From a virus (lineage: Duplodnaviria; Heunggongvirae; Uroviricota; Caudoviricetes), in the IMG/VR virus record IMGVR_UViG_3300025073_000880: a stretch of DNA of 64,000 bases. One strand, written 5' to 3'. The notes below the pieces were generated by a model, which was not told where the DNA came from, searched no databases, and saw only the letters and a list, made by a program, of their open reading frames with translations. Both the position numbers and the translations under genes were made by a program. Shown here in pieces: positions 1 to 56,894 of the stretch. Each line of letters begins with the position of its first letter. Positions within the stretch are counted from its first letter, which is position 1.

Positions 1-1633
1 ACTTGTGCCATAACACATCGTTTGTTTCTAAATCAGCGAACTCTGAAACATTAGTACTTTCAAATAAAGTAGGAGTATTTGTTGGTACATTTCTTTGCAA
101 ATCAGCTGCATCAAAATATAAAATATCTGTATTATTGCCACCTATCCAAACTACGACTGTTATCTTTCCACTCGCGGGGACAACAAACTCCTCTACAGAA
201 AACTGTTGAAACGAATCAGTCAAAGTCTTATTATCATAAAAATCACTCGCTGGCTCGGTAGTCGCTGGTGTATAAGACACCCACGCATTAGTTGTAAAAT
301 TGTAATACTGCGAAGCTGAACCTTTTGTATCATCAAATAAAGCTACCCTTGCTCTAGCATTAACAGAAGAAGCCCCGTCTTTTCGTGCGTAATATCTCAA
401 TCTATAAGTATGTCCTGCTGTAAGCCCTGATATAACTTGTTCAATATACGGTTGATCGCCTGATGTTCTGTATAGTTTAGCTGAATATGTACCTGCTTGA
501 ATGATTGTAGATTCTCTAATTATTCCAGCCTCAACACTATCAACTCCCCACAATCCCTCCGTCCAATTAGTTAAAGTGGTTGGTGTGGTTGCTGTCCAGT
601 TTTCAAACCCTCCATCTGTTGCTTGGTCTACTCCATCTATTTTTATCTGAACATTGTCAATATTAAGCAATGCCTCATTATCCCCAACCGAACCAATCAA
701 AATTTGAGAAGAAACAATCGCCCATGCAGGAGCTGTTACGATTGCTGAGCTTAACTCTGTATATGAACTAGTCGCTATAAGAATTTCAAAAATATTCTCA
801 TCAAATGTTGTTGACCATGTTCCAGCCAAAGCCCCAGTGGCATGATAATAATAATCATCAACGCCATCACCAGCTATTCTGATAACGAACATATTAGATG
901 TCCCTGACACTCTCTTGGCGTCAGCAATAACCTGAATAGTCTCGTCTGCCGCAAATGTAACAGCATTATCCAATAAGTTAGAAAAAAACATCCCTGCTAA
1001 AACTTCATCATACGCCTCATTTTGCACCGCATAAGAACCAGAACTACTATCTGCTGTTCTTGTTGTTTGATTTGCGACATCTCCGGAAATCGATTCTAGC
1101 GTCCAATCATCCGGCGTAAACAATCCTGTCGCATCCCATACTTCAACTCCACCATCAACCAAAACAGAAGTATCGTAATACTGCGGAACTTTTAATGCTC
1201 CGTATTTTAAATGTTTGGTGTCGGGTATTTTAATGTTTCGGCTATTACTAGGAGTGATGTCAGTCCCGTCATCACTCCAAAATTGATCTATATATGTTTT
1301 AAGGTCATCATACGTTTTTTTAGTAAATGATAATATCATTTCATACGTAGCCCCACCTGTGTTCTTTGTTGAGGCAGATGTGCTTTCCTGTGCCCTCGTA
1401 ACGGTTAAAGTATCAGTTGATCTAGCGGTACAACGAACAATTTCAACATTTGGGTCTAAAGTCGGATTGGTATAGTTGGTTGAGTCCCACCAAACTAAAT
1501 TAAAAGCACCACTGACAGACGGGTCTGGCAGTTTACTTCCATCACCTGTAGCTAATGTAATACTGGTGTCATCATTATCATAGCCACCATCTACACTAAC
1601 TTTGGCAAAATTTAATACTGGGTCTAAAACCAT
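1..1633 (-). CDS. Tail fibre / receptor-binding protein. Partial: the ATG is near 1631-1633 and the ORF runs off the window start. The C-terminal part resembles a carbohydrate-binding module (GFENWT.. pattern).
   Basis: Long uninterrupted minus-strand reading frame from the ATG at ~1633 to position 1. Gly/Thr/Ser-rich beta-type composition typical of fibre proteins. Not in the ORF track because it is incomplete. Confidence 0.45.
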   Translation of the reverse strand, partial: MVLDPVLNFAKVSVDGGYDNDDTSITLATGDGSKLPDPSVSGAFNLVWWDSTNYTNPTLDPNVEIVRCTARSTDTLTVTRAQESTSASTKNTGGATYEMILSFTKKTYDDLKTYIDQFWSDDGTDITPSNSRNIKIPDTKHLKYGALKVPQYYDTSVLVDGGVEVWDATGLFTPDDWTLESISGDVANQTTRTADSSSGSYAVQNEAYDEVLAGMFFSNLLDNAVTFAADETIQVIADAKRVSGTSNMFVIRIAGDGVDDYYYHATGALAGTWSTTFDENIFEILIATSSYTELSSAIVTAPAWAIVSSQILIGSVGDNEALLNIDNVQIKIDGVDQATDGGFENWTATTPTTLTNWTEGLWGVDSVEAGIIRESTIIQAGTYSAKLYRTSGDQPYIEQVISGLTAGHTYRLRYYARKDGASSVNARARVALFDDTKGSASQYYNFTTNAWVSYTPATTEPASDFYDNKTLTDSFQQFSVEEFVVPASGKITVVVWIGGNNTDILYFDAADLQRNVPTNTPTLFESTNVSEFADLETNDVLWHK

Positions 1634-1736: not shown

Positions 1737-2435
1737 CTATTTATCCAATTTAAGCACATCAGGGACTTTAACCGTTAATTTATCCTTATCTACAATGGAA
1801 CGGTAGCCATCGTCGCAATAATTACAATTAGCTCGCCCATACTTTCTAACCCTATCCTCTTCGTGCATATAGCCATAATGGAATGTCGGAGCCGTAGAGT
1901 GGAAACGTGTATTTTTAGGTAAATTTATATAATTGCTAGGACAAGCATACCCAGCATATTTTGGAAGATAGGTTATATTTGGCTGCCATTTTAAAGCCCT
2001 TACATGGTGAATACTTTTAAACAAGCCATCATTCCTGAATGTATCCTCATTGTCCCACATGTATAAAAGCCTAAACCAAAATGTTTTTTTATCTTTATCT
2101 AGCCAAAAATTCATTAGCTGTTCTGACATGTTTTTTGGATAACACTCATCACTGTCAGGGAAAAGAACAATATCAGGCTTAATATCATCTAACATTCTAA
2201 TGGTATTATCTCGTTGTAACCCTTGATTCCATCTACCACCACTATTTATTGTTTCTATAATCTTGACAACGGATTTGTGTCCTTTGGCTATTTTTTTTAT
2301 TGTAGGTGTTGAATCATTAAGATTAACATAAACCCTATTTGTATATTTAGCCATATCATCCAACACTTTTTTTGCGTATTTATCATCATCGTGCAACATG
2401 ATACAACCTACAATATTTATACCTTTTAAATCCAT
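1737..2435 (-). CDS. Glycosyltransferase, family 2-like (GT-A fold).
   Basis: Acidic D-rich motif near the N-terminus and GT2-like length and composition. Lies within a cluster of sugar-modifying genes. Confidence 0.5.
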   Translation of the reverse strand: MDLKGINIVGCIMLHDDDKYAKKVLDDMAKYTNRVYVNLNDSTPTIKKIAKGHKSVVKIIETINSGGRWNQGLQRDNTIRMLDDIKPDIVLFPDSDECYPKNMSEQLMNFWLDKDKKTFWFRLLYMWDNEDTFRNDGLFKSIHHVRALKWQPNITYLPKYAGYACPSNYINLPKNTRFHSTAPTFHYGYMHEEDRVRKYGRANCNYCDDGYRSIVDKDKLTVKVPDVLKLDK

Positions 2436-2523
2436 ATAAACCTCTAAAAAAATAATTTAATGATATACTAATAATTACAGTGAAACATCGCTCACAGCTC
2501 AATTTTGGACCCCACAATCAACA

Positions 2524-3066
2524 CTATTCATTGGTTATTATGCCCATTCCTGCCGTCCCGTAGTTCAATGTAGCTCCATGGTATTTTGTTAAAAGCTCTG
2601 CCCAAAACTCAGGCACACCACACTTTTGGTTACAAACGTCGTGCAACAAAATTATCCCACCTTTTTTTACCAATGGTGCGTACATGGCGAAATCCTGTTT
2701 TACCCCATTATAACTATGGTCCCCGTCTATAAGTAAAACATCAAAAGATTCAGTACTAACACTATCAAAAACCTCAACCTTATGAGAATCTCCAGCTACT
2801 GCCGTCCAAAAATCGTGTAAGTCAACTGGTATCCTCTCTGAAGCGTTAGGCAAATCTATCGAAATAGACGTTAAATGCCCACATCCTTTTTCTTTTAGTG
2901 CGGATAAAATAGTTCTCGTTGACTGTCCTTGCCTTACCCCAATTTCCAAAACATTTATTTTTGGTTCTTTTTCCATTATTAGCTCATAAAGCATAAAAAC
3001 ATACGGTTGCATCGCTCTCTTCATTTTTTTCATTGACAATATAATGTCATTCATATTTTTTAGCAA
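2524..3066 (-). CDS. Class I SAM-dependent O-methyltransferase (CmcI/TylF-like, Methyltransf_24-type).
   Basis: LEIGVRQGQST (motif I) and IDGDHSY motifs. Confidence 0.6.
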   Translation of the reverse strand: MLKNMNDIILSMKKMKRAMQPYVFMLYELIMEKEPKINVLEIGVRQGQSTRTILSALKEKGCGHLTSISIDLPNASERIPVDLHDFWTAVAGDSHKVEVFDSVSTESFDVLLIDGDHSYNGVKQDFAMYAPLVKKGGIILLHDVCNQKCGVPEFWAELLTKYHGATLNYGTAGMGIITNE

Positions 3067-3448
3067 TTAGATAAGAGTCCCTTTTAATAAAATCACACTC
3101 TAATATGTTAAATTTATTTAATCTTTTAATTAAAAATGATAATCCCACAGGAGACATTCTCCAACAATCAATAGGATAATTATGCAATGGTCTGTCCCAC
3201 GGAACAAATAAAAGCACAAACCCATTTGATAATCTACCTATCTCTTCAGTTAATTTATAAATATCCTCTACATGCTCTAGTACATTCGCACATATCACAA
3301 TGTCAAATTCATTATCATTAAACGGATATTTATAGCCGTCATTAACAACAACATCGACATTATCTCCGCTAACTATATCTAAACCTGTATATGTCCATAA
3401 AGGATTCGTAAAATATCTGCGGAACACCATCCTCGGATGTTTAATCAT
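3047..3448 (-). CDS. SAM-dependent methyltransferase (type 11-like).
   Basis: DIVICANVLEHVED motif. Overlaps the downstream gene by 20 nt. Confidence 0.5.
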   Translation of the reverse strand: MIKHPRMVFRRYFTNPLWTYTGLDIVSGDNVDVVVNDGYKYPFNDNEFDIVICANVLEHVEDIYKLTEEIGRLSNGFVLLFVPWDRPLHNYPIDCWRMSPVGLSFLIKRLNKFNILECDFIKRDSYLIAKKYE

Positions 3449-3555
3449 CTAATTTTTGCTACCAACCTCTAAAATATTTAACCGTTTATTCCTAAAAGGC
3501 CTTAAATAGTTCCTGATAAATTCTTTCATTGTATATAATTGAATAAAGTCCATAA

Positions 3556-4398
3556 TTATCTATGTTTTAAACAGTGTGCACAAAGAGTATATTTATATCT
3601 TTCTCCTTTTAATAAATCTAAAAATGTTTCAATCACATTATCTGACTGCAAAATAGTGTTTAGCTCTTGTTTGTATAATGACCCAAAAACATGAATTCGC
3701 TTCCAGTCGTGGCAACAAATAATGACTTCTCCAAAAGCATTAATGGTTAAAAATTTTAATGGAGATGGGCAAGGACGTTTAATATTTATAGCCTTATCAT
3801 CAAGCCAACACATTTTATTGTTCATTTTTTTATCCATCGGATACCTTTGATAAGCCCGTAAAACCATTGAAACATTATCTCTTACTCGTAAAATCATTTT
3901 ATGGATTCGCCTCCCTTCTTCAGGGGAATAAACCGAAAAATTCAATCTATTGACTCTAAACTTATCCATTTCTTTTATTAGAGAATCATCCACATTAAAC
4001 CCATTGCTGTAAAGCCAAATCTTTGCCTTTGGAACATACTTTTCAATCAAAGTAAGTATATAAAAAAATCTTGGGTCTGCTAATGGTTCTGAATATAAAA
4101 ATGGATAAATTATTCCTTGAAAATCATGTTTGCCCAAAAGCTTTAAAATTTGTTCAATTATCTCTAAAGGTAAAGATTTTGGCTCTTTAATTAAACTAGC
4201 AGGACATTTTTTATGGAGTAACGCATAATTACAAACATTGGTTGTTTCTATTAAAACGTTTCCCGTATAAGCAAACGGATTTATCTGTAAGTTTTTTTTT
4301 ACTATTTCTTTGTCCATGTAATTATAATGGTAATAATGTTGGAGCGCATGCAGGGCATACTTTGCAAATACCACACTCATAACAATATTTCTTGCCAC
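3556..4398 (-). CDS. Fe-S / SPASM-like Cys-rich enzyme; radical-SAM-related is uncertain.
   Basis: C-terminal CxxC-rich segments (IICCHDW, CAHCLKHR) and an N-terminal TNVCNYALLHKKC, but no canonical CxxxCxxC. A separate 47-aa Cys-rich reading frame (4463 down to ~4320) overlaps the 5' end in another frame. Confidence 0.3.
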   Translation of the reverse strand: MARNIVMSVVFAKYALHALQHYYHYNYMDKEIVKKNLQINPFAYTGNVLIETTNVCNYALLHKKCPASLIKEPKSLPLEIIEQILKLLGKHDFQGIIYPFLYSEPLADPRFFYILTLIEKYVPKAKIWLYSNGFNVDDSLIKEMDKFRVNRLNFSVYSPEEGRRIHKMILRVRDNVSMVLRAYQRYPMDKKMNNKMCWLDDKAINIKRPCPSPLKFLTINAFGEVIICCHDWKRIHVFGSLYKQELNTILQSDNVIETFLDLLKGERYKYTLCAHCLKHR

Positions 4399-4469
4399 AC
4401 TTAGGGCATTTATAAAGAGCTATAAGCTTTTTACACTTTTTACATTTTTCCCTCTCTTTTGTCATATTA

Positions 4470-5147
4470 TTATCTTTCTTTATGATAAAAATGAAATGTT
4501 GGATTATCAGAATGAATTATACGAATTTTATTATCACTACCACCTATCTCAACAAGTTTCCAATCCTCAGCCTCTCCTCTACCAATAATTTCTAAAAGCT
4601 CCCAATCAAACGTAATTTTCCTTCTCGGTCTTGGCCTGAAATAACCATATTTATCAAAAAGCTCTTTTTTAATCATAAAGCTTCCAATGTCACATTGCTG
4701 AGGTTGCAATCTACATTTTAACCTGTGTCTGTAATCTGGATTTTTAACTCCAATAAATAAAAGGTCAGTCCCTATCATTGTGGCTCCAGGATAAGCCAAT
4801 GCCTCATCTGCCAACAGCTGTAAATGATTAGCCTCCCAAAAATTATCATCATCTAAAAAACAAATCCACTCGTTATTAAACTCCCTATATCTATCTTTTA
4901 AATACCCAAAAGATAACATTGCCCCAACATTTCTTGAAAAACCCCCATAATAATGAGTCCTAACGCCAAGGTCTATCCAATGTCTGCGAGGGTCAAGGCA
5001 TAACCCAGCTAACGTTGTTCTTAGCTCAGGATTATTGTCATTAATAATTAAATGTTCCCAATTTTGAAACGTTTGCTCGTCTAATGATTTTATTACGTTC
5101 TTCACTCCATCAGGACGCCACCCTGCTGTTACTACGCTTATCTTCAT
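4470..5147 (-). CDS. Glycosyltransferase family 2-like.
   Basis: KISVVTAGWRPDG N-terminus and FLDDDN (DxD) motif. Confidence 0.55.
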   Translation of the reverse strand: MKISVVTAGWRPDGVKNVIKSLDEQTFQNWEHLIINDNNPELRTTLAGLCLDPRRHWIDLGVRTHYYGGFSRNVGAMLSFGYLKDRYREFNNEWICFLDDDNFWEANHLQLLADEALAYPGATMIGTDLLFIGVKNPDYRHRLKCRLQPQQCDIGSFMIKKELFDKYGYFRPRPRRKITFDWELLEIIGRGEAEDWKLVEIGGSDNKIRIIHSDNPTFHFYHKER

Positions 5148-5149
5148 AA

Positions 5150-5647
5150 TTATAGTAGATTTATATGATTCTTAACCGCTATTGCACAATTAAATCTGTC
5201 TATATATACTGGATTAAATCCATAAGGAAAATTTAATTTTTTATCAACATCATGGACAATAAATGCAGAGGTAACAAAGTTGTTTAGTTTGTCTATTATC
5301 GCTTGATTGTGCTTATGTCCGGCATCTATAAAGACCACATCAACAGCATGTTTCCAGTTTTCTTGCATAAAATCTTTCCATGTCAGTTCTGCATTAAGAC
5401 TATATTCTGCTAATAGCTTTTTGGCATAATTTAGTCTATGATTCTTAATGTCATAACCCCATGCCTTATAATTTTTGGTGTCATTTGATTTGACAGCACT
5501 GATGCCGAATAGGGCAGTATATCCCCAACCAACTCCAATCTCTAAATAACTTTTTGCATCTATCGCAACCAAAAGTCCATACATCAAAATAGAAAGTCTT
5601 TCGGTATAAAACGGCTTACCTTTCTCTTTGTTTATGTTAGGTATCAT
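5150..5647 (-). CDS. Class I SAM-dependent O-methyltransferase (CmcI-like).
   Basis: LEIGVGWGYTALFG motif I and FIDAGHKH motif. Confidence 0.55.
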   Translation of the reverse strand: MIPNINKEKGKPFYTERLSILMYGLLVAIDAKSYLEIGVGWGYTALFGISAVKSNDTKNYKAWGYDIKNHRLNYAKKLLAEYSLNAELTWKDFMQENWKHAVDVVFIDAGHKHNQAIIDKLNNFVTSAFIVHDVDKKLNFPYGFNPVYIDRFNCAIAVKNHINLL

Positions 5648-5650
5648 AAA

Positions 5651-6310
5651 TTAATAATAACCGTTAAAATTAAATTTATGTCTTCGATAATATAACAATG
5701 GTTCATCTATGTGCTCATGAGTAGCCTTACCAAGTAATATCATTTGACGCCAAAGACCCCAATCTTCATGCAAACGTTTGCCTGTTTCTGTTTTTCTTAT
5801 AGCCTTATAGCCAAATTTTTTTGCTATATTCGCATTATAAAGAGACGACCCGTGGATAAAATTACTCCTATTTATTTTACCATGTAGAGATCTCATCCTC
5901 CAAATATAATAACCATGTTTTTTTTCCGTCTTCATCCCAGCCCTAGCACTTGCAACATCTGATCCCGTTATATACATATCAGAAGAAACAATGTCAGCGT
6001 CAACATTTGACATAAGCTCCAACGCATCGGGTCTAAGCCAATTATCAGCCCCAAGATACATTACATACTCAGTAAAGATATGGTTCATTAAAATATCATT
6101 AAAGTTATCTAATGTCCCCATGTTTTTTTCTCGTTTCATCACGTCAACACCATACCGTGAAGCTGTTTCACACATACCATCATCAGAAGCATCATCAACT
6201 GCTAAAATCCTTTTTGGCAGTACCGTTTGTGATAAAACAGAATCAATCGCGTGCGCAACTAAATGTCCATAATTATACCCCACAATAACAACAGTTATTT
6301 CTTTTTTCAT
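5651..6310 (-). CDS. Glycosyltransferase family 2.
   Basis: ITVVIVGYNYGHLVAHAIDSVLSQT and VDDASDDG motifs, the canonical GT2 N-terminus. Confidence 0.65.
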   Translation of the reverse strand: MKKEITVVIVGYNYGHLVAHAIDSVLSQTVLPKRILAVDDASDDGMCETASRYGVDVMKREKNMGTLDNFNDILMNHIFTEYVMYLGADNWLRPDALELMSNVDADIVSSDMYITGSDVASARAGMKTEKKHGYYIWRMRSLHGKINRSNFIHGSSLYNANIAKKFGYKAIRKTETGKRLHEDWGLWRQMILLGKATHEHIDEPLLYYRRHKFNFNGYY

Positions 6311-6795
6311 AAATATCTGCGTAACCTTTGAAACCTTGAATCATCACCCCGCCTTACAGAAAATGCCTCTTTATATCCCAACTCTTCAACGGCCTTTAAA
6401 CATAAATCATTAAACTTCCCATAAGGATATGCGACATAATCCATTGGGAATGGAGGCGTTAATTCTTTTAGTATATCCCTATAAGATAATCTTGTTAAAT
6501 TTGGATGTGACCACGTATGCCAACCAAGCTTAGTCCCATTATTAACAAGGCTTTCTATTTGTTTCCATGTACAAAACCTTTCAAATGGCTGACCAACATC
6601 GAACGAATTATCTCCACCAACATAATTACCCATAACAAAAATAATAACATCTTTTTTACAAATAATTTTTCTATGTCTCCAAACATTTTCGTAAACACCA
6701 TCAAAGGTTAATTGCCCTTCAGCTTTTTTAATTTCTTTTGATGTATTATAGTTACTAGTTAATTTCTCTCCAATATTATGGCAAAGATAAGTCAT
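6307..6795 (-). CDS. Polysaccharide deacetylase (NodB homology domain).
   Basis: HTWSHPNLTRL, the NodB His-x-x-Ser-His motif. Confidence 0.65.
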   Translation of the reverse strand: MTYLCHNIGEKLTSNYNTSKEIKKAEGQLTFDGVYENVWRHRKIICKKDVIIFVMGNYVGGDNSFDVGQPFERFCTWKQIESLVNNGTKLGWHTWSHPNLTRLSYRDILKELTPPFPMDYVAYPYGKFNDLCLKAVEELGYKEAFSVRRGDDSRFQRLRRYL

Positions 6796-7306
6796 ATATG
6801 GCTAACCTTTCAATAAATCGTCTATACTTAAATTTATATTCAAATATTTGATACTTTTTATCTATATCATTTCTCTCCCATGATGATATATTGCAAGTTA
6901 ATATAAACCGTCTAGCGTGCAGTCTTATTTTTTCAAGAATCCACATATAATTATATTGCCTATAAAGTGTCCCCATGGTTGTCACCAAATCAAACTTCAT
7001 CGGTTCATTAAGGCTATCAAGATTAATAATATTTTCAGGAAGTCTAGATGTTGCTCTATCAGATAAATCATAACCATAAAGCATTTCAGCAGGAATGTCT
7101 TTTGTTATCCACCCCTCACCACAACCAATATCTAAGGCATTTTTAAGACATAGCCCGTTAAAGCCACAAATAAAGTCTAAACTACTAATAATAATATCCT
7201 TCCTCTTTATATCATCACCATTACTTTTATATCCCCAAGGGTCTTCAGTTTTATAAAAACTTTCTAAATCATCTTTGCTTTGCATACTATCTTTTTTTAC
7301 CAACAA
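6776..7306 (-). CDS. SAM-dependent methyltransferase.
   Basis: LDIGCGEGWITKDI glycine-rich motif I. Confidence 0.55.
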   Translation of the reverse strand: MLVKKDSMQSKDDLESFYKTEDPWGYKSNGDDIKRKDIIISSLDFICGFNGLCLKNALDIGCGEGWITKDIPAEMLYGYDLSDRATSRLPENIINLDSLNEPMKFDLVTTMGTLYRQYNYMWILEKIRLHARRFILTCNISSWERNDIDKKYQIFEYKFKYRRFIERLAIYDLSLP

Positions 7307-8639
7307 TTATTATTGATTTTTTACGCTCATCAAGACCTGGAACAAACTCACACCTAATAATTTTATATCCCAATACTCTACTAAACAGTTGAATTAAAAC
7401 GTCCATGGTAAAAGCAACTTTATGCGAAACCTCTCTAATAGTACTTGGGCGTGATAACCCATCAGGCACAATTATACCTAAAATTCCGCCAACCTTTAAT
7501 ACACGGCTCCATTCTAACAGTGTCTTTTTGGTATCAACCATATGCTCTAAATTATGACAAGCAACTAAGGCATCAAGTTCTCCATCTTCAAAAAACCATA
7601 AGTCATCACCATTAGCTATTATATCAGCTGCCGACCCGGGGTAAGTATCAATACCAATACAATTGGGATGACACTTTTCAGTCCCACAACCAACATCAAT
7701 ACATTTACCAGTTTTGCAATATTCGCCAAGTAAATATCTTTGATTAAACTTTCTTTTTGTTTCTTGTTCTGATTGGACACCTGTATCCAATCCCCAATAG
7801 CTTAAACGCTTATTGTGCTCAGGTTGGTCTTCAGGATGATTAATTTCCATTGGGATATTTGTCTTTGGATCAATGGTTGGATACGGCTTTTGTTCTCCCT
7901 GATTAACTCTTTCTTTTGAATATGTTAAATATTCATTGAAATCTTTTTCATAACCTTTGTTCTCCCACATAAACCCCGTGTGATTCGCATATAAATGGAC
8001 AGCCATCCCAAACTTCTTTTTTAATGTTTTCATTGCGTCAGCATAACTATGGGACTCCCAATGCTTCCGATGACCAAACGGAGCATCTCCCAAAAGCGAT
8101 AAATCTGATTTTTTCTGCATTCTAAAAACAGATGGCATTGTTTTATTATTTCTAATTATTTTATCAGTTTCAATCCACTCGGCTCTCTTCGTCCTCTCTA
8201 TCCTCATACAAATAGACCCGTAATCAGGATAATGCTCATTAAACAAATGTTGCAACCGCTCAAGCCAGCATGGCCTTAAATCTGGTGGAAGTAAATCATC
8301 TTGTGTTGTAACAAAAACATCGGATTTAACATGCTTAAATCCTTCATTTAAAGCCTCTGGTTGACCCACATTTTCTGGCATCCAAACAATTTTATCAACA
8401 AGACCCAAAACTTCAGCATGCTTTAAAAAATCTTTAGTAGAATCAGTCGAAGCGTTATCTATAACAATAATCCTATGAGGGTAAAATGTTCTTTCCTTAA
8501 TGCTTCTAATCGTTTGTTCTAAAAACCGTCTACGCTGATATGTTACTAAGAGAATGTCTATTGGTTCTCGAGGTAAATCTTTGGAGTTAAAAGATACCTC
8601 TCTTACTTGACTATCTTGTTGATTTGTTTCTTCATCCAT
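7287..8639 (-). CDS. Two-domain protein: N-terminal GT2 glycosyltransferase plus C-terminal SAM methyltransferase.
   Basis: IDILLVTYQRRRFLEQTIRSI...IDNASTD (GT2). Further along, IDVGCGTEK...LEHMVD...LKVGGILGI (MTase type 11). Confidence 0.6.
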   Translation of the reverse strand: MDEETNQQDSQVREVSFNSKDLPREPIDILLVTYQRRRFLEQTIRSIKERTFYPHRIIVIDNASTDSTKDFLKHAEVLGLVDKIVWMPENVGQPEALNEGFKHVKSDVFVTTQDDLLPPDLRPCWLERLQHLFNEHYPDYGSICMRIERTKRAEWIETDKIIRNNKTMPSVFRMQKKSDLSLLGDAPFGHRKHWESHSYADAMKTLKKKFGMAVHLYANHTGFMWENKGYEKDFNEYLTYSKERVNQGEQKPYPTIDPKTNIPMEINHPEDQPEHNKRLSYWGLDTGVQSEQETKRKFNQRYLLGEYCKTGKCIDVGCGTEKCHPNCIGIDTYPGSAADIIANGDDLWFFEDGELDALVACHNLEHMVDTKKTLLEWSRVLKVGGILGIIVPDGLSRPSTIREVSHKVAFTMDVLIQLFSRVLGYKIIRCEFVPGLDERKKSIIIVGKKR

Positions 8640-8643
8640 AAAA

Positions 8644-10083
8644 TTATTTTATTTTTTCATAAAGTAATGGTTCAAGCATACCATAATATATTTGTTTAGT
8701 ATTGTGAGTTTTCCACACATGTCTAAATTGCTTATCAGCATCATTTTTGTCTAATCTATCAACAATTGCCACGGCAAGCCTTTTTAATGTTTCGTCATCT
8801 CTACCCTGATAGTGCATGTTTTTAAACGATGTAAAGTTGTGGTACAAAACAGCGTTGCTATCAACAAAATCACTAAGCGATGGCAAATCTCTGTTTATAA
8901 CAAGTAAGTTTTTAGCCATTGAAGCCTCAAGCAAAACATTACTACAAACCTCTGCCATAGTAGGGAATATAAATAAATTTGATACTTGGAATAAATTCGC
9001 AACAACTTCATGAGGCACAGATTTTTTAATTGGCATATCAGTGTCATTTGCCAATAAGCTAGTAAACATAATATCTTCTCCATTTATCAAACCATACTCT
9101 TTAGCTAATTTTAGTTTACTCTCAATATCATTAAGTCTTTTATGGCCATTGGCATTGCAAAAAATTAAAGCAACTTTTTTTCCTAAAGACTTTAACATCC
9201 CAAACGTCTTTATAACTAAATCTCCACCCTTTGCGTCAAACCTTGTAGTACATAAAGGATAACTCTGAATAATATTTTTATCCCAAAGTCTCATTACATT
9301 TGAAATATTTATCGTAATTGGGGACCAATTGAAAAGATTTGATGGATCTTTTTCATTAAAGACAACCCTAACTTTGTTGTGATTAACACCTATCATTGAG
9401 GCAAACTCAGCCGTATCGGCATAATTCATATAAACATATCTAGCATTCGGCATATCAAAATCTATCGGAAAACCAACTCCACTTCTTGCCCAATGTAACC
9501 ACTCAATATTAACACCACACTCCTTTATAGCCTCTCTATATGTAATACAGTCATCTATAAATAAATCATGCGTAATAACAATATCAAAACCAACTAACTC
9601 TTTTTTGAGAACTTCAATAAATTTATTTTTAGCAACTTCGTCCACAACATTTTTTTCTCTCTTAAACCTTGTAACCACAGGTCTCATCTCACAATCCCAA
9701 TCTAACGTGCTTCCTTCTTGAACAAAAAACACCACCTCGTGTCCAAACTCTTTCAGCATTTTTATTTGATGCCTTACGGCTCTAGCTGGAGAATAATAAG
9801 ATGGTGCCCTATTAAAATGACTGATAATGGCTATTTTTAATGGCTTTTTGTTTTTACTAATAAGAGGAGCTCTTTTAACCTCAATGGCTGGAGAGTTTTT
9901 TACTTTCAAACTTCTAACAGATTCATCAAGAGCATGGATGATATCATCTACCGGAAAATCGTTACGAATAGTATAATGTTTCAAATCACCCTCATCAACA
10001 GTTTTATCTCGTATCGTAGCGGTAATAAAATAACTATTATGTTTACTAGCCTCTAAAAATATATTAGCCAAATCTTCATTCAT
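8644..10083 (-). CDS. Glycosyltransferase family 1/4-like (GT-B fold).
   Basis: C-terminal EAS...LLVINRDLPS region resembling the GT1 E-x7-E motif. Size 479 aa. Confidence 0.5.
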   Translation of the reverse strand: MNEDLANIFLEASKHNSYFITATIRDKTVDEGDLKHYTIRNDFPVDDIIHALDESVRSLKVKNSPAIEVKRAPLISKNKKPLKIAIISHFNRAPSYYSPARAVRHQIKMLKEFGHEVVFFVQEGSTLDWDCEMRPVVTRFKREKNVVDEVAKNKFIEVLKKELVGFDIVITHDLFIDDCITYREAIKECGVNIEWLHWARSGVGFPIDFDMPNARYVYMNYADTAEFASMIGVNHNKVRVVFNEKDPSNLFNWSPITINISNVMRLWDKNIIQSYPLCTTRFDAKGGDLVIKTFGMLKSLGKKVALIFCNANGHKRLNDIESKLKLAKEYGLINGEDIMFTSLLANDTDMPIKKSVPHEVVANLFQVSNLFIFPTMAEVCSNVLLEASMAKNLLVINRDLPSLSDFVDSNAVLYHNFTSFKNMHYQGRDDETLKRLAVAIVDRLDKNDADKQFRHVWKTHNTKQIYYGMLEPLLYEKIK

Positions 10084-10165
10084 ATTTTTTTATCATATCA
10101 TATAAAAACACATTTGTCAACAACATATCCACAGACAAACCATTCATTAAACTACATTATCATGT

Positions 10166-10399
10166 TTAAACATCATATTTTAAGTACCCACTAACAAATT
10201 TCCAAAACCCCATTACCGCGCCAACGATAAATGCGAATAACACCGCTTGACCATACGCCCTAAAATCGCCAAATGAAGTCGGGGAAAATGTAATAAGGAT
10301 TGCGGTTGTTAATCCCGACCCAATCATTGTATATAACGCTCGAAACAAACTTCTTTTAATCGTTTCCCAGCTTGGGTAGACCACTTCGGTTTCTTTTTT
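10166..10399 (-). CDS. Small membrane protein; holin or membrane-partner candidate.
   Basis: 78 aa with two hydrophobic helices. Starts immediately after the preceding small TM ORF. Confidence 0.3.
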   Translation of the reverse strand, partial: KKETEVVYPSWETIKRSLFRALYTMIGSGLTTAILITFSPTSFGDFRAYGQAVLFAFIVGAVMGFWKFVSGYLKYDV

Positions 10400-10403
10400 T
10401 GTC

Positions 10404-10580
10404 ATATTTATTTTTTCCAAGGAAATGAATAATCTACGAATAATGAAATTAAAAACACAATCGCACACAACACCACGACCACTAACGCTATTGTTCTAAT
10501 TGGGTTTGGCAACATCGGGATGAGATAACTCACCATTACCCAAAATGCCACTGCCGCAATCAAAATTGAAATCAATTTGT
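10404..10580 (-). CDS. Small membrane protein (58 aa); holin candidate.
   Basis: MNKLISILIAAVAFWVMVSYLIPML..., two TM segments. ORF read from sequence; not in the track because it is under 60 aa. Confidence 0.3.
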
Positions 10581-10833
10581 TCATATTATTTATCTTTTAA
10601 TTGTTTATCGTATGTAACTCTATTAACCCATTCCTGCTTTTTGCCCTTATTCCAGCGAGAAATTGGGCTTAAATAACCAACTATACGATCGAGAGTATAC
10701 CTCACACCTCTGGCGAGTACACTCTTTTTCCCCTCCTTTCTTTGTGCTTGCATCTGACATATTAAAATTTGTTTATATCTTAATAATTTATCGCTTGGTT
10801 TCAAACTAAGTACATATTTTCTTAACTCTCGGA

Positions 10834-11808
10834 TTACTCGCCTATTGGTTCTTTTTTTAGGTTTATAGTGGGCATAGAATCCCATACATCTTGTTTTACC
10901 GTAAGACACTTTTCCATTATGTACCCATTGTTTCTCATCAAGAAACTAGCTTGGACCTTAGCTAAATCATCTACTATCTTTTTCCCGTCTAAAACAAGTG
11001 CAAATCCTCCCACTCCCTCAATTAACTGTATAAGTGTATTGTTCGGAATGTTATACCCCATAGGTTTATTCAATGTTATTTTATATTTTGTTATACCCGT
11101 ATGTTTATATCCATCTTCAAGTCTTTTTATATCAGGCAAATAATGGTCAAATATCGTATTGTTTCTAAACTTCATCACGAAATGATTCCTTCTTTTATTA
11201 TTGTCCGGATAAACACCATTAACAGGTGTTGTCCATGCGTATACTCCGACTTGAAGTGGTGAATATTTTAATGCTTCTGCAATATCCTCACTTAAAACAA
11301 ACTCATAATTAATCGGAAATCTCTCTATGAACTCTTTACCTTTTCGTTTTAAATCTTCAGGTACTTCTTGATAATATTGTTCCCATGTAAGAATGTCAGG
11401 AAAATCCCAATCACATTCAGGTATAAGTCCATATTCACGAATAGCATCTCCAACTTTATAAACATAATTACCACTTTTAGTAGTACCACTTAACTTGGCA
11501 ATATACCTATCGCTGAAATTTATCTTATCAGTAGCAATATCAATGTACCCTCGTTCTTTTAACCAAACATAATCATCATTACTTAGAATATCTTCTGCAA
11601 TATAGTAATTAAAAATGGTTTCAATAACATTCAAGGCAGAAAATGTCACACAAGCAAACATATCAACTTGTTTCTTTTGCCTTTCAAAACTAGGCAAATA
11701 AGCAGTCCAATCATCAACAACTAAATCATCTATAATCCCAGTATAACCACCAAAATACCAATGGCTATTCTTAGGATATTTTTCTTGTTTATATCCGTAA
11801 TTCGTCAT
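10834..11808 (-). CDS. Papain-like (clan CA) cysteine peptidase-like protein.
   Basis: DMFACVTFSALN (Cys motif) and NHFVM (His) arrangement. Confidence 0.35.
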   Translation of the reverse strand: MTNYGYKQEKYPKNSHWYFGGYTGIIDDLVVDDWTAYLPSFERQKKQVDMFACVTFSALNVIETIFNYYIAEDILSNDDYVWLKERGYIDIATDKINFSDRYIAKLSGTTKSGNYVYKVGDAIREYGLIPECDWDFPDILTWEQYYQEVPEDLKRKGKEFIERFPINYEFVLSEDIAEALKYSPLQVGVYAWTTPVNGVYPDNNKRRNHFVMKFRNNTIFDHYLPDIKRLEDGYKHTGITKYKITLNKPMGYNIPNNTLIQLIEGVGGFALVLDGKKIVDDLAKVQASFLMRNNGYIMEKCLTVKQDVWDSMPTINLKKEPIGE

Positions 11809-12884: not shown

Positions 12885-14198
12885 AAAAAAGCTTTTTCAT
12901 GGCTTCAAGTTCACCGAGCTCGTGTGTCCAAGCATTGCCACACACTAAACAGATGTACTTACATACCAAATTACCTTCAAGAATATCCATTGATGCAGGA
13001 TCAGCTACCTGTTCAGTCACATCATGACAGTATGGACAATTAAATGCCTTTATCAGTAGTCGCCACCGCTCGTTGTTCATTTGTCCCCCCAGTCTATCAG
13101 CCAAGCCATATTGGCTTTGGTTAAGCAAACTTTGATGACATGACCACACTTATGACATACCATTATCAGAATTGTCCGTTTAGTAATGTAGACAACATCA
13201 ACAACCTTGAATATGACATGAAATTTACATTTCACACACACACCAGTCGCTCCTTTGAACACAGCCACTCTGCTCATCGTACAAGCTCCTTTCTAATGGC
13301 TTCCTCGCCATCTACAAATGCCGTATGAGCGATGTAATGATAGTTTGTACCTCTACACCTCCTATCAACACATAAAGTTGTCAAAACACCTAATACAGCC
13401 CCAGTCGTGTGCGTATATGCGATATAAACCTGCCAAACACTAGCTTCACAAAACTTGCACCAACAGCGATATTTGACCTCGCTCATCAATGCCTTCCTTT
13501 CGGGTAGTGGTGGTCAAACAACATCAAGAGAATTATAATCACAATCAATAGCAACACTTTCACTTACTTCTTCCTTTTCTTGAGAGGTTTCACACCTTCC
13601 ATTGCCGCCTTGTATTTCATCGCACACGCCACTTTCTTATCTTCAGCCTTGTCCCTTTCGTGGTCCCAACAGCTTGACTTCGTGTAATCGCCAGTTTTAC
13701 AGCACTCTTCACATTCTAAAGTGTATGTTCCTTTCTTGCCGTCATCAATCTGTCCAGTTTTTCGCCCACAACCACACTGCAATCGGCTCATGTTTCCTCC
13801 TTTGGTTGTAAAGGACTATTCTGTGTGGCTTTTCAGTAATGACTCAATTCTAGCTGTGGATTCAAGTTGTTGAATCTGTCGGCTCTCAATTCTATCCATT
13901 CTAAGCTGTATCTCGTGTAAATCATTGTCTTTAATTGCTTGCAGTTTTGATGCCACAATCTCATTATTCTCAATCTGTGATTCAAGTCTGATTATCTGTT
14001 TCTCCAGAGCATTTTGTGGGTTAACAATCCAAAAAATAACACCCGAGATACAGCCAATCAACGCCACAACCATTGTTATTTCGCTTTTTAATACCTTGCG
14101 GATTATGCTGTCGTTATTTTGTAGCTCCATATTTTTTCTTTTTTTTGTTTAATGCTTATCTAAGGCAATAAGTTTTTATTGCCTTAGTAATAACTAAA

Positions 14199-15095
14199 CT
14201 ATCCGAGCAAACTTGTAGAACTTGAAGTACTTGAGCTTGTAGAACTTGTGGTACTTGAGCTTGTGCTTGAGCTTGTGCTTGAAGTACTTGAAGATGTAGA
14301 GCTTGTAGAGCTTGAGGTACTTGAAGACGTAGAGCTTGAAGTACTTGAGCTTGTAGAGCTTGAAGTACTTGAAGACGTAGAGCTTGAGGTACTAGAACTT
14401 GTAGAGCTTGAGGTACTTGAAGACGTAGAGCTTGAAGTACTTGAGCTTGTAGAGCTTGAGGTACTAGAACTTGTAGAGCTTGAGGTGCTTGAGGTGCTTG
14501 ATAAATACGTATTACTTGGAACAATGATTGATTTTCTAACCTCCCCAAAGTTTAATAGGTTAATATAAAAAGCATCATTTGCTACATTAGAAAAATATAC
14601 AGGGAGTAAAACCTGCTTTGGGAATGTGGTATTATGCTCTGCAACCTTACGTTTATCATCACCATTGCCAATCCAAAATTCAACACGTTCTATTCTTGTC
14701 CGAACCTCAAAAGAAGTTGGTGTATTTGTCCATGTTGCATCCCACGGAACAGTTGTCTGTTCTGGGGTTGCACTATCATCGTTATAAGATCTAACGTAAA
14801 AATTAGTTCCACTGATAAAAAAGTACGCAGCATTCCGATTCCCGAATGCTTTTGAATATAAACCAAAAACTCGAGAATCTCCGCCTGTTGGGGCTGTCGG
14901 CACAGTAAGCTTCATTTCAAAGTTACCGTGCATAAACACCCTGAGGGTACTAATACTGGCAGTGTGTAATCTAATTTTCCCGTCCAAAACTTTCGCATCG
15001 CCACTAAACCTTCTCAATTCTGTTGTGTCGAATCCTGAAAGATATGGGTCATAGAGAAAGTGATAACGATCACTAACTGTTTTTACGTGTGCCAT
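14199..15095 (-). CDS. Virion or surface protein: N-terminal beta-rich domain plus a long C-terminal (SSST)n Ser/Thr tract.
   Basis: About 100 residues of SSSTSSSTSSS... encoded by the 12-nt tandem repeat at 14215-14515. Confidence 0.45.
   Translation of the reverse strand: MAHVKTVSDRYHFLYDPYLSGFDTTELRRFSGDAKVLDGKIRLHTASISTLRVFMHGNFEMKLTVPTAPTGGDSRVFGLYSKAFGNRNAAYFFISGTNFYVRSYNDDSATPEQTTVPWDATWTNTPTSFEVRTRIERVEFWIGNGDDKRKVAEHNTTFPKQVLLPVYFSNVANDAFYINLLNFGEVRKSIIVPSNTYLSSTSSTSSSTSSSTSSSTSSSTSSSTSSSTSSSTSSSTSSSTSSSTSSSTSSSTSSSTSSSTSSSTSSTSSSTSSTSSSTSSSTTSSTSSSTSSSTSLLG
14215..14515. repeat. Tandem 12/24-nt repeat (agagcttgaagt-like units) encoding poly-Ser/Thr.
   Basis: Visible periodicity. 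All three frames on both strands give low-complexity ORFs. Confidence 0.8.
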
Positions 15096-16574: not shown

Positions 16575-17232
16575 TTAGTCAGTTACACCTTTAAGCAAAG
16601 CACAAAGTGGGCTTTGTTTTCGTTCCAAACCAGCTTCAGTAATGAACTGGTCAATCTCTCCATCAACATCAGGGGCCTGAACGTTCATCATGAGCTTAGT
16701 GTCACGATTCGCCATAAAGCGATATCGGAAACAATTAAGATCAAGCAAGAACGCATAGCCTGAATATTCTTCAACAAACAATGGATTGTGCACGATGTTG
16801 ATTGAACCAAATGGGGTCATGTACTCACTGATTTCCAAACCGTAAGATTTATCTCCTGTTTTGGTTCTCAGCTGACCACGAGCCATTTCATTTATTGCCT
16901 GCAAAACAACACCACCACACATTAATACTTTTTGGTTATCACCATAAGTGAAGCCTTCTCGTAAAAATGTGTTAAAGTCTGGAGCTGTTAATGGGCCACC
17001 TTGATTTTGAACAAATCCTGTACCACCCTCAATAAATTCAAGGAGACCACCTGTAGTTCGTAACGGTTTACTGTTACTACCTGTAGTAGAAGCTTTTTCA
17101 CCCCAAATGAAAGCTCGTTCAATATCAAGGGCATGTTCAGTCGCCTTTTTGGCTCTTTGATAAACCAAGTCTGGGCCACCGTACAAATTAGCATTCTTCT
17201 CTGTGTCAGAAACACCAATGGTCGTTTTAAAT
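16575..17232 (-). CDS. Major capsid protein, last exon. The frame is open back to ~17232.
   Basis: Capsid-like C-terminal segment (..FMANRDTKLMMNVQAPDVDGEIDQFITEAGLE). The frame stays open upstream of the TTG listed in the track, right up to the intron D core. Confidence 0.6.
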
Positions 17233-17235
17233 ATT

Positions 17236-18258
17236 TGCTTTATATTGCATCAATAATGATGGGTAAACATCTCTGTTTACCACTATATGTCACCATATAG
17301 ACTCGACTATATCTTCACAAATGTGTGTTCAACGTATAGTCTGTGAGAATTTAACTATTAAATTTATACCGTATAGATAATGGTACACCATTAAAATATT
17401 GGCTATGCGATAATAACGACAAGAACTTAAACGATGGTTTTTTATTTAATCTAATACGATAATACATTCTATCACCACCATATACCCCTTTAACTGGAAG
17501 TATTTTAACCTCTATATTAAATTTTTGCCAAAACCACTTTTTTATACCTTTAACTTCAGATAATGTATAACTATCAGTACAAATAATTATAGAGTCATTT
17601 GATTTTATATAAGATCCATCGTCAAGATACCAAAATAATAAAGAATCCTCATCTAACAAGTTTAACCCACGTCTTGTTATATATCTTTTTTTATTTCTAT
17701 AAAAAATTCCATATATGTTAGTTAAGCTTGGATGAGAAATAGAGTGAGTATGATATTGAATATTACCGTTATTGTTATACCTATTAACATTATCTTGTAA
17801 AAAAATTTCATTCAACAATTGCTTCTTAAACAAGAGATAATCTAATTGCTTTTCACAATGACATAGTGACAATCTATGAAAACCGTCAGTTTGTAATATC
17901 AATGATGAATCACCCAATAATGTGCCGTAAATAATTGACATTTTCTCTTTTGATATACTTTCACCTTTTAATGTTCTAGCCTTAGAATAACTTTTATTTG
18001 TTTTTCTAGGTCTTCTGTCGTTATAATTTTTATAAACACATTTTTTTGAACAAAATATTTTATCTTTTCTATTTTGATAAAATAGTTTGTTGCACTGTTT
18101 ACAATTAATATACATAGTTATCTTTTCTGCTGATTGTCTCTATGTGTAAAATTCTTAGGGTTCGCTAGTAGTTTTCACCGCCTAGTATCCTATTTACACC
18201 ATAACAAGATATCCCAGCATATAGTTGAATTTTACTATACCCAAATTTTTATTAAAGT
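17236..18258 (-). mobile_element. Group I intron D in the capsid gene, carrying a LAGLIDADG HE ORF. Boundaries approximate.
   Basis: Core at 17284-17347 on the minus strand: CACAGACUAUACG (P7 5'), a P8 hairpin, AAGAUAUAGUCGAGUC (P7 3') and a P9 hairpin. This is near-identical to the Tetrahymena intron P7 strands CAGACUAAAUG and AAGAUAUAGUCGGACC. Confidence 0.7.
17351..18115 (-). CDS. Homing endonuclease: N-terminal zinc finger plus LAGLIDADG-type motif (LLGDSSL).
   Basis: CKQCNKLF...CSKKC zinc finger; IYGTLLGDSSLILQTDG. Sits inside intron D. Confidence 0.55.
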   Translation of the reverse strand: MYINCKQCNKLFYQNRKDKIFCSKKCVYKNYNDRRPRKTNKSYSKARTLKGESISKEKMSIIYGTLLGDSSLILQTDGFHRLSLCHCEKQLDYLLFKKQLLNEIFLQDNVNRYNNNGNIQYHTHSISHPSLTNIYGIFYRNKKRYITRRGLNLLDEDSLLFWYLDDGSYIKSNDSIIICTDSYTLSEVKGIKKWFWQKFNIEVKILPVKGVYGGDRMYYRIRLNKKPSFKFLSLLSHSQYFNGVPLSIRYKFNS

Positions 18259-18261
18259 ATA

Positions 18262-18608
18262 GTTGGTCAGCGGAGAGGATTGTGTAGTGTTAATGTTCTT
18301 AGCACTTGAATTTTCCTCATTCGCATTACCAATCAAGAACAAACCATCACCATCAGCTCCAGCAGCAGCCGCAGTCGCACCGAGCGAACGGCCACCTGAA
18401 GCAATAGTAATTGTTGTTGCACCAGCAATCGTAGCTACAAGCATTCTTTCACCAGTTCTGGCGTTAAGAATAACGTCACCAACCGTGAAAATATAAGCCG
18501 AGCTAGACCCAGCACTAGTTACAGTAATTGTTACACCACCTGAAGCGGAATAAGTTCCACTTACCTTTGCGTAACGTCCGCCATAAAAATCTTCGCATTT
18601 GTTAACCC
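18262..18608 (-). CDS. Major capsid protein, internal exon (~115 aa).
   Basis: Open frame ...CEDFYGGRYAKVSGTYSASGGVTITVTSAGSSSAYIFTVGDVILNARTGERMLVATIAGATTITIASGG..., bounded by the intron C 3' core and the intron D 5' end. Confidence 0.55.
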
Positions 18609-18609
18609 A

Positions 18610-19330: not shown

Positions 19331-19334
19331 CATA

Positions 19335-20033: not shown

Positions 20034-20278
20034 AACCAGAGTCCAAGTGGATTTTTTAAACTCTGGGTTGCCTGTTTCCTTTTTAAGAATACCAGCTCCC
20101 GTCCAAGCCTTACCATCATACACTTTACCAACAGTAGTCAGTAAGGTTGTAAGCGGATGCTTGCGAGGTTCAAGTAAGAAGACTTTATCAACGGCATCCA
20201 CTACTAATCGCTGCTCAGTAGATGACGTTGAAGTATCTCTAGCAGCAGAAGCCACCGCCCCCTGATTGTGGGTCAATC
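20031..20278 (-). CDS. Major capsid protein, N-proximal exon (~80 aa).
   Basis: ..AVASAARDTSTSSTEQRLVVDAVDKVFLLEPRK.. frame. The TTG start in the track is preceded directly by TGA and by the intron A 3' end, so the exon is entered by splicing rather than by initiation. Confidence 0.5.
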
Positions 20279-46935: not shown

Positions 46936-46960
46936 TATAGATTAACAGTCTATTGTTTTA

Positions 46961-47240: not shown

Positions 47241-47296
47241 ATACAATTAACTTATTTACTTGACGATTACTTGACAATTAGATATAGGAATATTTT

Positions 47297-54370: not shown

Positions 54371-56894
<2,524 letters not shown>

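Follow-up and report, generated by a model that had tools for sequence, protein, structure and literature searches.

The 64 kb stretch of phage DNA analysed here (the window, whose positions serve as coordinates throughout) carries on its minus strand, at 1737–10083, a cassette of eleven genes with a predicted role in the synthesis and decoration of a glycan. In our view, the cassette probably carries out cytoplasmic O-glycosylation, accompanied by methylation, of mucin-like (SSST)n tails on the phage's own virion proteins. The evidence comes from the folds and families of the encoded enzymes, from the absence of membrane segments in all eleven of them, from conserved gene order and from a correspondence across related loci between the type of serine-rich tail and the set of glycosyltransferases (GTs) encoded downstream of it. 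The window comes from a groundwater phage of 92.6 kb whose capsid is of the SU10 type; 14.3 kb of it are 100% identical to a 92.6-kb groundwater contig, held in aquifer samples (ERZ909573 / JGI 3300002093), and to a second JGI contig.

The cassette and its glycosyltransferases

The eleven open reading frames (ORFs) follow one another with gaps of no more than about 150 nt between genes. The block is compact and occupies the late strand, with head genes on one side and the tail-fibre gene immediately downstream on the other; no terminator-like site was found on the minus strand within it. The original prediction of eleven consecutive minus-strand genes beside the tail fibre is thus borne out, the fibre ORF being recognized by its PHROG match (Table 1). 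The gap directly upstream of the first gene contains the best sigma-70-like promoter match in the first 17 kb of the window, which we treat as a lead only because the total of such sites is not above shuffle expectation.

None of the eleven proteins has a membrane segment (the maximum over 19 residues on the Kyte–Doolittle scale is 1.36, compared with a threshold of 1.6), and the cassette encodes neither a flippase nor a polymerase nor a polyprenyl-phosphate GT. These absences point to soluble, cytoplasmic chemistry on a protein or some other soluble acceptor. Pfam assignments were counted at or above the gathering score, and GT2 enzymes were also judged by their acidic DxD-type motif; NCBIfam gave no specific equivalog for any of the cassette proteins.

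The first enzyme of the cassette, encoded at 8644–10083, falls below the Pfam threshold, and searches of its sequence against the PDB, either singly or as a profile, gave only spurious matches. Its AlphaFold2 (AF2) model, based on 35 homologues (pLDDT 89.6), comprises the two Rossmann-like domains of a GT-B fold. When the model was compared with the PDB using Foldseek (probability 1.0), the best match was BshA at an E value of 5e-13, followed by MshA, WaaG and PimB' down to 1e-9, with GlgM and TreT also found. The TM-scores of these superpositions are low (about 0.3), presumably owing to opening between the domains and to an extra N-terminal α/β domain of about 60 residues plus a linker. An EX7E motif is present (E378-VCSNVLL-E386), with both glutamates invariant in the 35 homologues, whereas Pfam detects no DUF1975 domain of the kind found in GtfA. 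On the strength of the predicted structure we regard this protein as confirmed to be a GT4-like GT-B enzyme, and by analogy we propose it as the priming enzyme of the cassette. Its family contains at least 160 homologue clusters, all of about 475–490 amino acids (aa), on contigs of up to about 105 kb.

The remaining GTs, one of them only a candidate, are of the GT-A type. Four GT2 enzymes and one GT-B enzyme had been predicted originally; the GT-B assignment is upheld by the AF2 fold and the invariant EX7E motif, and three of the GT2 assignments (4470–5147, 5651–6310 and the N-terminal half of 7287–8639, whose acidic motif is QDD) lie above the Pfam cut-off. The fourth, 1737–2435, falls short of it and is unproven as a GT2 on its sequence: it matches the other GT2s weakly by hhalign (E value 0.054, probability 1%), with its DSDE motif aligned with DDD.

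Table 1. Features of the cassette and of related genes in the window (all on the minus strand)
Feature	Position	Strand	Evidence
Tail-fibre gene, full length 791 aa (read from L121, the same phage)	2..1633 (continues outside the window)	-	PHROG tail-fibre N-terminus, E value 5e-10
Possible GT-A-like glycosyltransferase, 232 aa, DSDE motif	1737..2435	-	Pfam GT2 16.9 bits (cut-off 23.3)
Methyltransf_24/rhamnosyl-O-methyltransferase-CmcI-type SAM methyltransferase, 176–180 aa, core	2524..3066	-	Pfam Methyltransf_24 74 bits, RMNT_CmcI 30 bits
Methyltransf_11-type methyltransferase gene with in-frame TAG	3047..3553	-	Pfam match to 3047–3448, C-terminal half of the fold only
BtrN-like radical-SAM/SPASM (twitch) enzyme, accessory	3556..4398	-	Pfam SPASM 38 bits, Radical_SAM 31 bits, both above cut-off
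GT2 glycosyltransferase (GT2b), 225 aa, DDD motif, core	4470..5147	-	Pfam 34 bits
Methyltransf_24 (CmcI/TylF-superfamily) SAM methyltransferase, 165 aa	5150..5647	-	Pfam 32 bits (cut-off 26.3); motif I LEIGVGWG
GT2 glycosyltransferase, 219 aa, accessory	5651..6310	-	Pfam Glycos_transf_2 53 bits
NodB/CE4-type polysaccharide deacetylase, 162 aa (short), accessory	6307..6795	-	Pfam Polysacc_deac_1 52 bits, above cut-off
Small putative SAM methyltransferase, 169–176 aa, low confidence	6776..7306	-	Sub-threshold Pfam only (DREV E value 1e-4, Methyltransf_23/31/25); motif I LDIGCGEGW
Fusion of GT2 (GT-A) domain and C-terminal class-I SAM methyltransferase domain	7287..8639	-	Pfam Glycos_transf_2 66 bits (residues 29–157), Methyltransf_11 30 bits (residues 340–387)
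GT-B glycosyltransferase, 479 aa, GT4-like, retaining-type	8644..10083	-	AF2 model, Foldseek, EX7E
Sigma-70-like promoter match	10092..10120	-	TTGACA-17-TATGAT, 11/12, extended -10 TG; gap directly upstream of the GT-B gene
Proposed acceptor: ConA-like lectin-fold domain (residues 1 to about 195) and (SSST)n tail	14199..15095	-	AF2, Foldseek, tail co-variation
UDP-glucose/GDP-mannose dehydrogenase-like protein, 278 aa	29419..30255	-	Pfam UDPG_MGDP_dh_N 62 bits, central domain 41 bits
SDR NAD-dependent epimerase/dehydratase, RmlD/GDP-Man-dehydratase-like	56004..56894	-	Pfam Epimerase 138 bits, RmlD_sub_bind 117 bits

The serine-tailed acceptor candidate

The N-terminal domain of the proposed acceptor is predicted by AF2 to be a β-sandwich (pLDDT 95.3), and Foldseek matches it to GH16 and legume-lectin folds with a TM-score of about 0.7. 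The ConA-like fold is common in phage surface proteins. The tract of about 100 (SSST)n residues that had been predicted in this protein is real: it occupies 14202–14501, is in frame, is written in mixed codons and ends with the residues STSLLG. It is also the sole S/T-rich tract in a coding frame within the window, the other match of the scan (32639, plus strand) lying outside any gene. In relatives the gene order MCP–p241–p187–ConA-like gene (MCP, major capsid protein) is kept, and since the ConA-like gene always follows these three genes it can be placed in the head-proximal late block.

A second (SSST)n ORF lies just beyond position 1 of the window, immediately after the fibre gene, at about 15226–15881 of L121. 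It begins with an 18-residue N-terminus, MPYGYHAYAEVEYGGLVV, and continues with at least 200 residues of (SSST)n to the end of the contig; the L121 assembly probably breaks within this repeat. Extra (SSST)n ORFs with a tiny N-terminus are also found by the fibre gene in L106, which has two, and in L123. The 791-aa fibre itself contains no S/T-rich tract, its maximum being 48% S+T per 25 residues.

At the second (SSST)n ORF, gene callers report only an antisense 'VLELVELE' artefact, and the public gene calls P0143 and P0128, when set against L032 and L034, stop the ConA-like protein at the serine repeat or place antisense ORFs there. Because gene calls truncate at the repeat, database proteins under-report serine tails. 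P0143 and P0128 had been considered as 'tail-less' controls and were dropped, as their DNA encodes full (SSST)n tails.

Comparison of related loci

About 120 related loci were gathered and each was scored for its tail type and for downstream enzyme markers; the co-variation described here rests on about 25 related contigs. Among the contigs that offer at least about 4 kb of downstream sequence, about 18 distinct ones have an (SSST)n tail, and in these the GT-B cassette follows and never the alternative set. In six contigs (L025, L026, L065, L078, L082 and L098) the tail is (SPSxS)n, and what follows is another set, made up of GT2-like, methyltransferase and epimerase genes, and never GT-B. Three loci without a serine tail (L027, L035 and L036) have no GT cassette. 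The two states do not reflect one ancient split, since they are interleaved in the neighbour-joining tree of the N-domain, where the SPS/alternative state appears at at least three separate places among the SSST/GT-B branches. The closest pair, L003 and L025, have N-domains that are 76% identical, yet differ in both tail and cassette. The original prediction had offered either the (SSST)n protein or the fibre as the acceptor and had suggested a comparison of gene neighbourhoods in related phages; in that comparison tail type and GT set do co-vary, which singles out the (SSST)n tail, the fibre being without an S/T-rich tract.

The same loci distinguish a core from an accessory set of genes. The GT-B gene and the GT2–methyltransferase fusion are present together in all of the GT-B relatives, the fusion being 41–52% identical, and GT2b (4470–5147) has homologues of 27–48% identity in every GT-B relative whose fetched locus reaches it (L024, L023, L004, L029, L031 and L032). 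Homologues of the CmcI-type methyltransferase (2524–3066) occur in most relatives at 36–47% identity, and those of 1737–2435 in four, at 23–27%. The radical-SAM and NodB genes, together with 6776–7306, 5150–5647 and 5651–6310, are restricted or nearly so to this phage: no homologues of 6776–7306 or of the NodB protein were found in the related loci, and the sole match to 5651–6310 there is 25% identical (L029). The relatives carry other decorations, including SDR (short-chain dehydrogenase/reductase) epimerases, a cytidylyltransferase (L031) and large methyltransferases. We also note that the homologue of 1737–2435 is fused to a C-terminal domain in L023 (17895–19289) and L004 (16473–17876). 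From its motif FGTxLG...WDxDxD we judge this domain to be LicD-like, which hints at decoration of the glycan with a phospho-substituent, for example phosphocholine.

Methyltransferases and accessory enzymes

Three S-adenosylmethionine (SAM) methyltransferases of the CmcI/TylF type had been predicted. Only two genes, 2524–3066 and 5150–5647, are of this type, both above the Pfam cut-off; 6776–7306 has sub-threshold methyltransferase matches only. The Methyltransf_11-type gene at 3047–3553 is interrupted by an in-frame TAG at 3449–3451; the 34 N-terminal codons (3452–3553), SAM motif I among them, lie upstream of it, and the junction reads ILEVGSKN*MIKHP. The TAG is shared by L121 and L122, two independent assemblies from a single sampling site, which rules out a sequencing error. 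Stop-codon recoding was likewise ruled out, as no suppressor tRNA exists here and TAG is the stop of 16 of the 69 ORFs, TerL among them. As judged from its sequence, this gene is probably inactive.

Enzymes of the NodB/CE4 family are characterized by the motifs TFDDG (supplying a catalytic Asp and a metal Asp), H(S/T)xxH and RxPY. In the protein at 6307–6795 the metal motif is kept as HTWSH, whereas motif 1 has only one Asp (TFDG) and motif 3 reads AYPYG. By its Pfam score the protein is a candidate NodB deacetylase, with the Asp-Asp motif reduced.

What had been described as an Fe-S-like enzyme (3556–4398) can now be refined to a BtrN-like radical-SAM/twitch protein. Translation is likely to start at M28, which gives a 253-aa product from 3556–4317. 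Its best relative of solved structure is BtrN (4m7t), with an E value of 7e-11 over about 245 residues and with the cysteines of the auxiliary (twitch) cluster aligned. In place of the CX3CX2C triad that binds the SAM-cleaving [4Fe-4S] cluster, residues 56–65 read CNYALLHKKC (C56-NYALL-H62-KK-C65), a C-x5-H-x2-C arrangement in which the middle cysteine of BtrN aligns with a leucine. Of the 150 best family representatives among 1,797 matches at E < 1e-3, 142 share this arrangement, with the BtrN-type auxiliary cysteines conserved, and many proteins of this family are fused into larger ones of up to 1,090 aa. We know of no description of a C-x5-H-x2-C radical-SAM variant, and made no literature search for one. 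The identical 253-aa product occurs in 13 contigs by the protein database and in 20 by contig look-up, and a copy that is 60% identical is present in the related cassette of L123.

Proposed pathway and alternative explanations

The original prediction of a pathway for a methylated, possibly deacetylated, oligosaccharide agrees with the enzyme inventory: a GT4-like GT-B enzyme of the initiating type, several GT-A enzymes, methyltransferases of sugar-O-methylating types, NodB and a BtrN-like sugar oxidoreductase, with no membrane or lipid-carrier machinery. The acceptors, the order of the steps, the identities of the sugars and the display on the virion are our reconstruction, as follows. The acceptors would be the (SSST)n tails of late proteins, namely the 14199–15095 protein and the product of the second ORF beyond the fibre gene. 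The soluble GT-B enzyme would start the glycan by placing a sugar, taken from a host UDP-sugar, on Ser/Thr hydroxyls, in parallel with the priming of serine-rich-repeat adhesins by GtfA. The chain would then be extended by the GT2 enzymes (the N-terminal half of 7287–8639, 5651–6310, 4470–5147 and perhaps 1737–2435), and its sugars O-methylated by the C-terminal half of 7287–8639, by 2524–3066, by 5150–5647 and perhaps by 6776–7306. In this phage NodB may de-N-acetylate N-acetylhexosamine residues, and the BtrN-like radical-SAM enzyme may oxidize or otherwise tailor a sugar; the non-core genes in general would be lineage-specific decorations. The result would be a bottle-brush glycoprotein carried by the particle, with a possible role as shield or adhesive or in colloidal stability.

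Several observations weigh against this interpretation. Three loci depart from the co-variation: L028 has alternative GTs but lacks the serine tail, L084 has an SPS tail and an inserted restriction–modification (RM)/LexA block with no GT within 9 kb, and L106, although its SSST tails are directly adjacent to the GT2–methyltransferase fusion and GT2b, has no GT-B over the same distance. A further caveat is physical linkage, as only 0.06–6 kb separate tail gene from cassette (in L026 and L106 the cassette starts only 57–76 nt past the tail-bearing gene), so that block recombination could switch both at once without any functional coupling. The 14199–15095 protein has no PHROG match, and it is from gene order that we infer it to be a particle component. 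The priming role of the GT-B enzyme is an analogy only, because the acceptor-binding DUF1975 insertion of GtfA is absent. Finally, some of the decorations may be inactive, given that one methyltransferase is broken, that NodB has a degenerate Asp-Asp motif and that the radical-SAM enzyme departs from the canonical motif.

The acceptor could instead be the fibre, a capsid protein or another structural protein, with the serine tails serving as plain flexible spacers or 'whiskers'. The cassette does lie directly upstream of the fibre gene, L028 does combine GT genes with a ConA-like protein that has no serine tail, and the acceptors in mycobacteriophages are capsid and tail-tube subunits (PMC11600133). 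This possibility is hard to separate from glycosylation of the serine tails by sequence, but we consider it unlikely: the fibre lacks an S/T-rich tract, and neither the switching of SSST and SPSxS in step with the GT set nor the clustering of extra (SSST)n ORFs round the cassette is explained by it. The co-variation would be equally unexpected if the cassette remodelled a glycan of the host envelope (O-antigen, teichoic acid, capsule or S-layer glycan) to block superinfection or the readsorption of progeny to debris. Serotype-converting phage GTs are well known (PMC12619734), NodB enzymes mostly act on cell-wall polysaccharides, and the GT2 enzymes of the cassette weakly match TuaG, EpsE, PgaC and PglI-type envelope enzymes and a GtrB-like PHROG (E value 1e-4). 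Nevertheless, the NCBIfam matches are all far below their cut-offs, the cassette lacks membrane-spanning proteins as well as any flippase, polymerase or polyprenyl-phosphate transferase, and it sits in a late structural block and not in a moron or lysogeny locus, so that we rate an envelope target as quite improbable.

We give very little credence to a third idea, in which methylated sugars are added to the phage DNA as a hypermodification or the product is a small glycosylated metabolite, perhaps akin to an aminoglycoside in view of the BtrN-like, NodB and methyltransferase enzymes. GT-B enzymes of phages can glycosylate DNA (Pyle et al. 2024, as cited in PMC12619734), this phage has several DNA methyltransferases, and BtrN acts in aminoglycoside biosynthesis. 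However, no dCMP/dUMP hydroxymethylase or other base-activating enzyme was found among the scanned ORFs of the window, and genes for an aminotransferase, a cyclase or export are lacking. Most relatives do without the radical-SAM and NodB genes, which are thus dispensable accessories, and again the co-variation of tail and GT set is not predicted.

A wider proposal can be made, which we put forward tentatively and with somewhat more doubt than belief. It is that an uncultured, widespread clade of 90–105-kb SU10-capsid phages (at least 160 GT-B clusters, from groundwater, sediment and similar metagenomes) makes 'viral mucins', in which virion proteins with Ser/Thr tails of 50–470 residues are converted to methylated bottle-brush glycoproteins by a modular, swappable cassette, any exchange of the repeat 'code' (SSST or SPSxS) going hand in hand with one of the GT set; the proposal also takes in a large undescribed BtrN-like branch with the C-x5-H-x2-C motif. 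If the tails are glycosylated as proposed above, phage self-glycosylation would reach an abundant environmental clade and a different acceptor design, in which mucin-like repeat tails take the place of capsid or tube subunit ends. Nature would then offer a system in which acceptor repeats and enzyme sets are matched, as well as compact soluble enzymes for glyco-engineering (a Ser/Thr-priming GT-B enzyme, a GT–methyltransferase fusion and sugar O-methyltransferases). The system would also bear on the survival and sticking of phages in aquifers and sediments. The radical-SAM variant is an independent lead for Fe-S enzymology.

The phage and other features of the window

Portal, TerL, GroEL, RtcB and primase-helicase genes identify the window as phage DNA, and both capsid and portal are of the SU10 type. 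Neither megablast of the cassette nor tblastn of the GT-B protein and the acceptor N-domain (50,697 phage records) revealed a relative among cultured phages, and TerL is at most 30% identical to that of any cultured phage. Homologues of the GT-B protein and N-domain gave no host assignment, as they were found only on short contigs binned into unrelated metagenome-assembled genomes (Cloacimonadota, Spirochaetes, Pacearchaeota and Patescibacteria). The nucleotide-sugar dehydrogenase and epimerase that had been predicted elsewhere in the window are both supported by Pfam matches (Table 1), and each is a possible sugar-nucleotide supply gene. The dehydrogenase-like protein is without the C-terminal UDP-binding domain, and its gene is followed by an HU-like ORF.

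The SU10-type major capsid gene (16584–20273, minus strand) is in three pieces, encoding aa 10–82 (20273–20055), aa 85–199 (18594–18250) and aa 194–415 (17249–16584). The intervening segments of 1.0 and 1.5 kb hold LAGLIDADG-type ORFs (17351–18115, 18689–19210 and 19359–19964), and a fourth such ORF lies at 20311–21192. No group I or group II intron was matched by Rfam at gathering score in the split gene, and in relatives the gene is intact or is split elsewhere.

Between the acceptor gene and the cassette lies a gene for a 324-aa protein (10834–11808, minus strand) whose homologues carry Peptidase_C1 (papain-like) domains. Near it are two small proteins with a single transmembrane segment or a coiled coil (10166–10468 and 13816–14130, both minus strand), and the three together may form an unusual lysis block. 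A 107-aa ORF (10586–10909, minus strand) matches only the C-terminal glycyl-radical end of the anaerobic ribonucleotide reductase NrdD (E value 4e-6), and a 146-aa version of it is present in one relative. A separate 368-aa radical-SAM protein is encoded 32 kb away (42858–43964, minus strand), and the pair may represent a glycyl-radical protein of small size and the activase that serves it. What looks like an RNA-repair toolkit is encoded at 45454–49441, 54371–56023 and, on the minus strand, 31622–32632; it consists of a Ro-like RNA-binding protein, a PhoH–RtcB fusion, an RNA ligase and a GroEL chaperonin.

Comparison with known systems

To our knowledge, direct evidence that phage enzymes glycosylate their own virions is confined to a few actinobacteriophages. 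In the mycobacteriophages Che8, Corndog and Myrna (Freeman et al. 2023, as cited in PMC11600133, PMC11256854 and PMC12619734), phage GTs modify the C-termini of capsid and tail-tube proteins (PMC12619734, PMC11600133). That system resembles the present one in its soluble phage-encoded GTs, with or without an O-methyltransferase, in its C-terminal extensions and in a presumed use of host sugar nucleotides. The corresponding features are recognizable here from the genes, which include GTs and an S/T-bearing C-terminal extension, on a protein whose structural role is suggested by gene order. The mycobacteriophage cassettes reported in PMC11256854 and PMC11600133 comprise two GTs or, in cluster O, three GTs and one O-methyltransferase; the original statement that the present cassette is larger and richer in methyltransferases than those known holds against these, its eleven genes making it much larger. 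The proposed acceptors also differ, being (SSST)n tails of 100–470 residues on a lectin-fold protein and on tiny-headed ORFs in place of capsid and tail-tube subunits. There is no homology between the enzymes, tblastn of the GT-B protein against the phage records giving no match at E 1e-3, and the virus lineage is another one (SU10-type capsid, about 93 kb, groundwater).

Gtr-type serotype-conversion cassettes require membrane proteins (the GtrA flippase, GtrB, a bactoprenol GT with transmembrane helices, and GtrC), whereas none of the eleven proteins here is of this kind. The capsid glycosylation of the chlorovirus PBCV-1 (A064R, A111/114R; PMC7826918, PMC9614988), like the fibril glycosylation clusters of giant viruses, involves virus-encoded cytoplasmic assembly of glycans that is independent of the host. 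A064R fuses GT and methyltransferase domains (PMC7826918), a parallel to 7287–8639, and methylated sugars are found on the surface of the PBCV-1 particle. PBCV-1 differs in being a eukaryotic virus with atypical N-glycans on its major capsid protein, with no sequence relationship and no serine-repeat acceptor. As for the radical-SAM enzyme, its auxiliary cysteines are like those of BtrN (2-deoxy-scyllo-inosamine dehydrogenase), the difference lying in C-x5-H-x2-C as opposed to CX3CX2C.

In the glycosylation of serine-rich-repeat adhesins of Gram-positive bacteria, GtfA/GtfB prime Ser/Thr residues of the repeats in the cytoplasm, with GtfC and further GTs acting in addition; a DUF1975 insertion binds the acceptor and the partner protein, and GtfB is a paralogue encoded beside GtfA (PMC6973325). 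The present cassette has no DUF1975 and a single GT-B gene without a GtfB partner, and no SecA2/SecY2/Asp export genes were found among the ORFs scanned. It adds methyltransferases, NodB and a radical-SAM enzyme, and its acceptor repeat is SSST and not of the SxSx dipeptide type. The absence of homology to the mycobacteriophage enzymes and of the DUF1975, GtfB and accessory Sec features sets it apart from all of the families compared. Adhesin glycosylation and the system proposed here would nevertheless share long Ser-rich acceptors, a cytoplasmic location, independence of a lipid carrier, a GT4-type primer and extending GTs that vary between lineages (PMC6973325), and by this analogy it is the adhesin pathway that comes closest in logic among the known systems.

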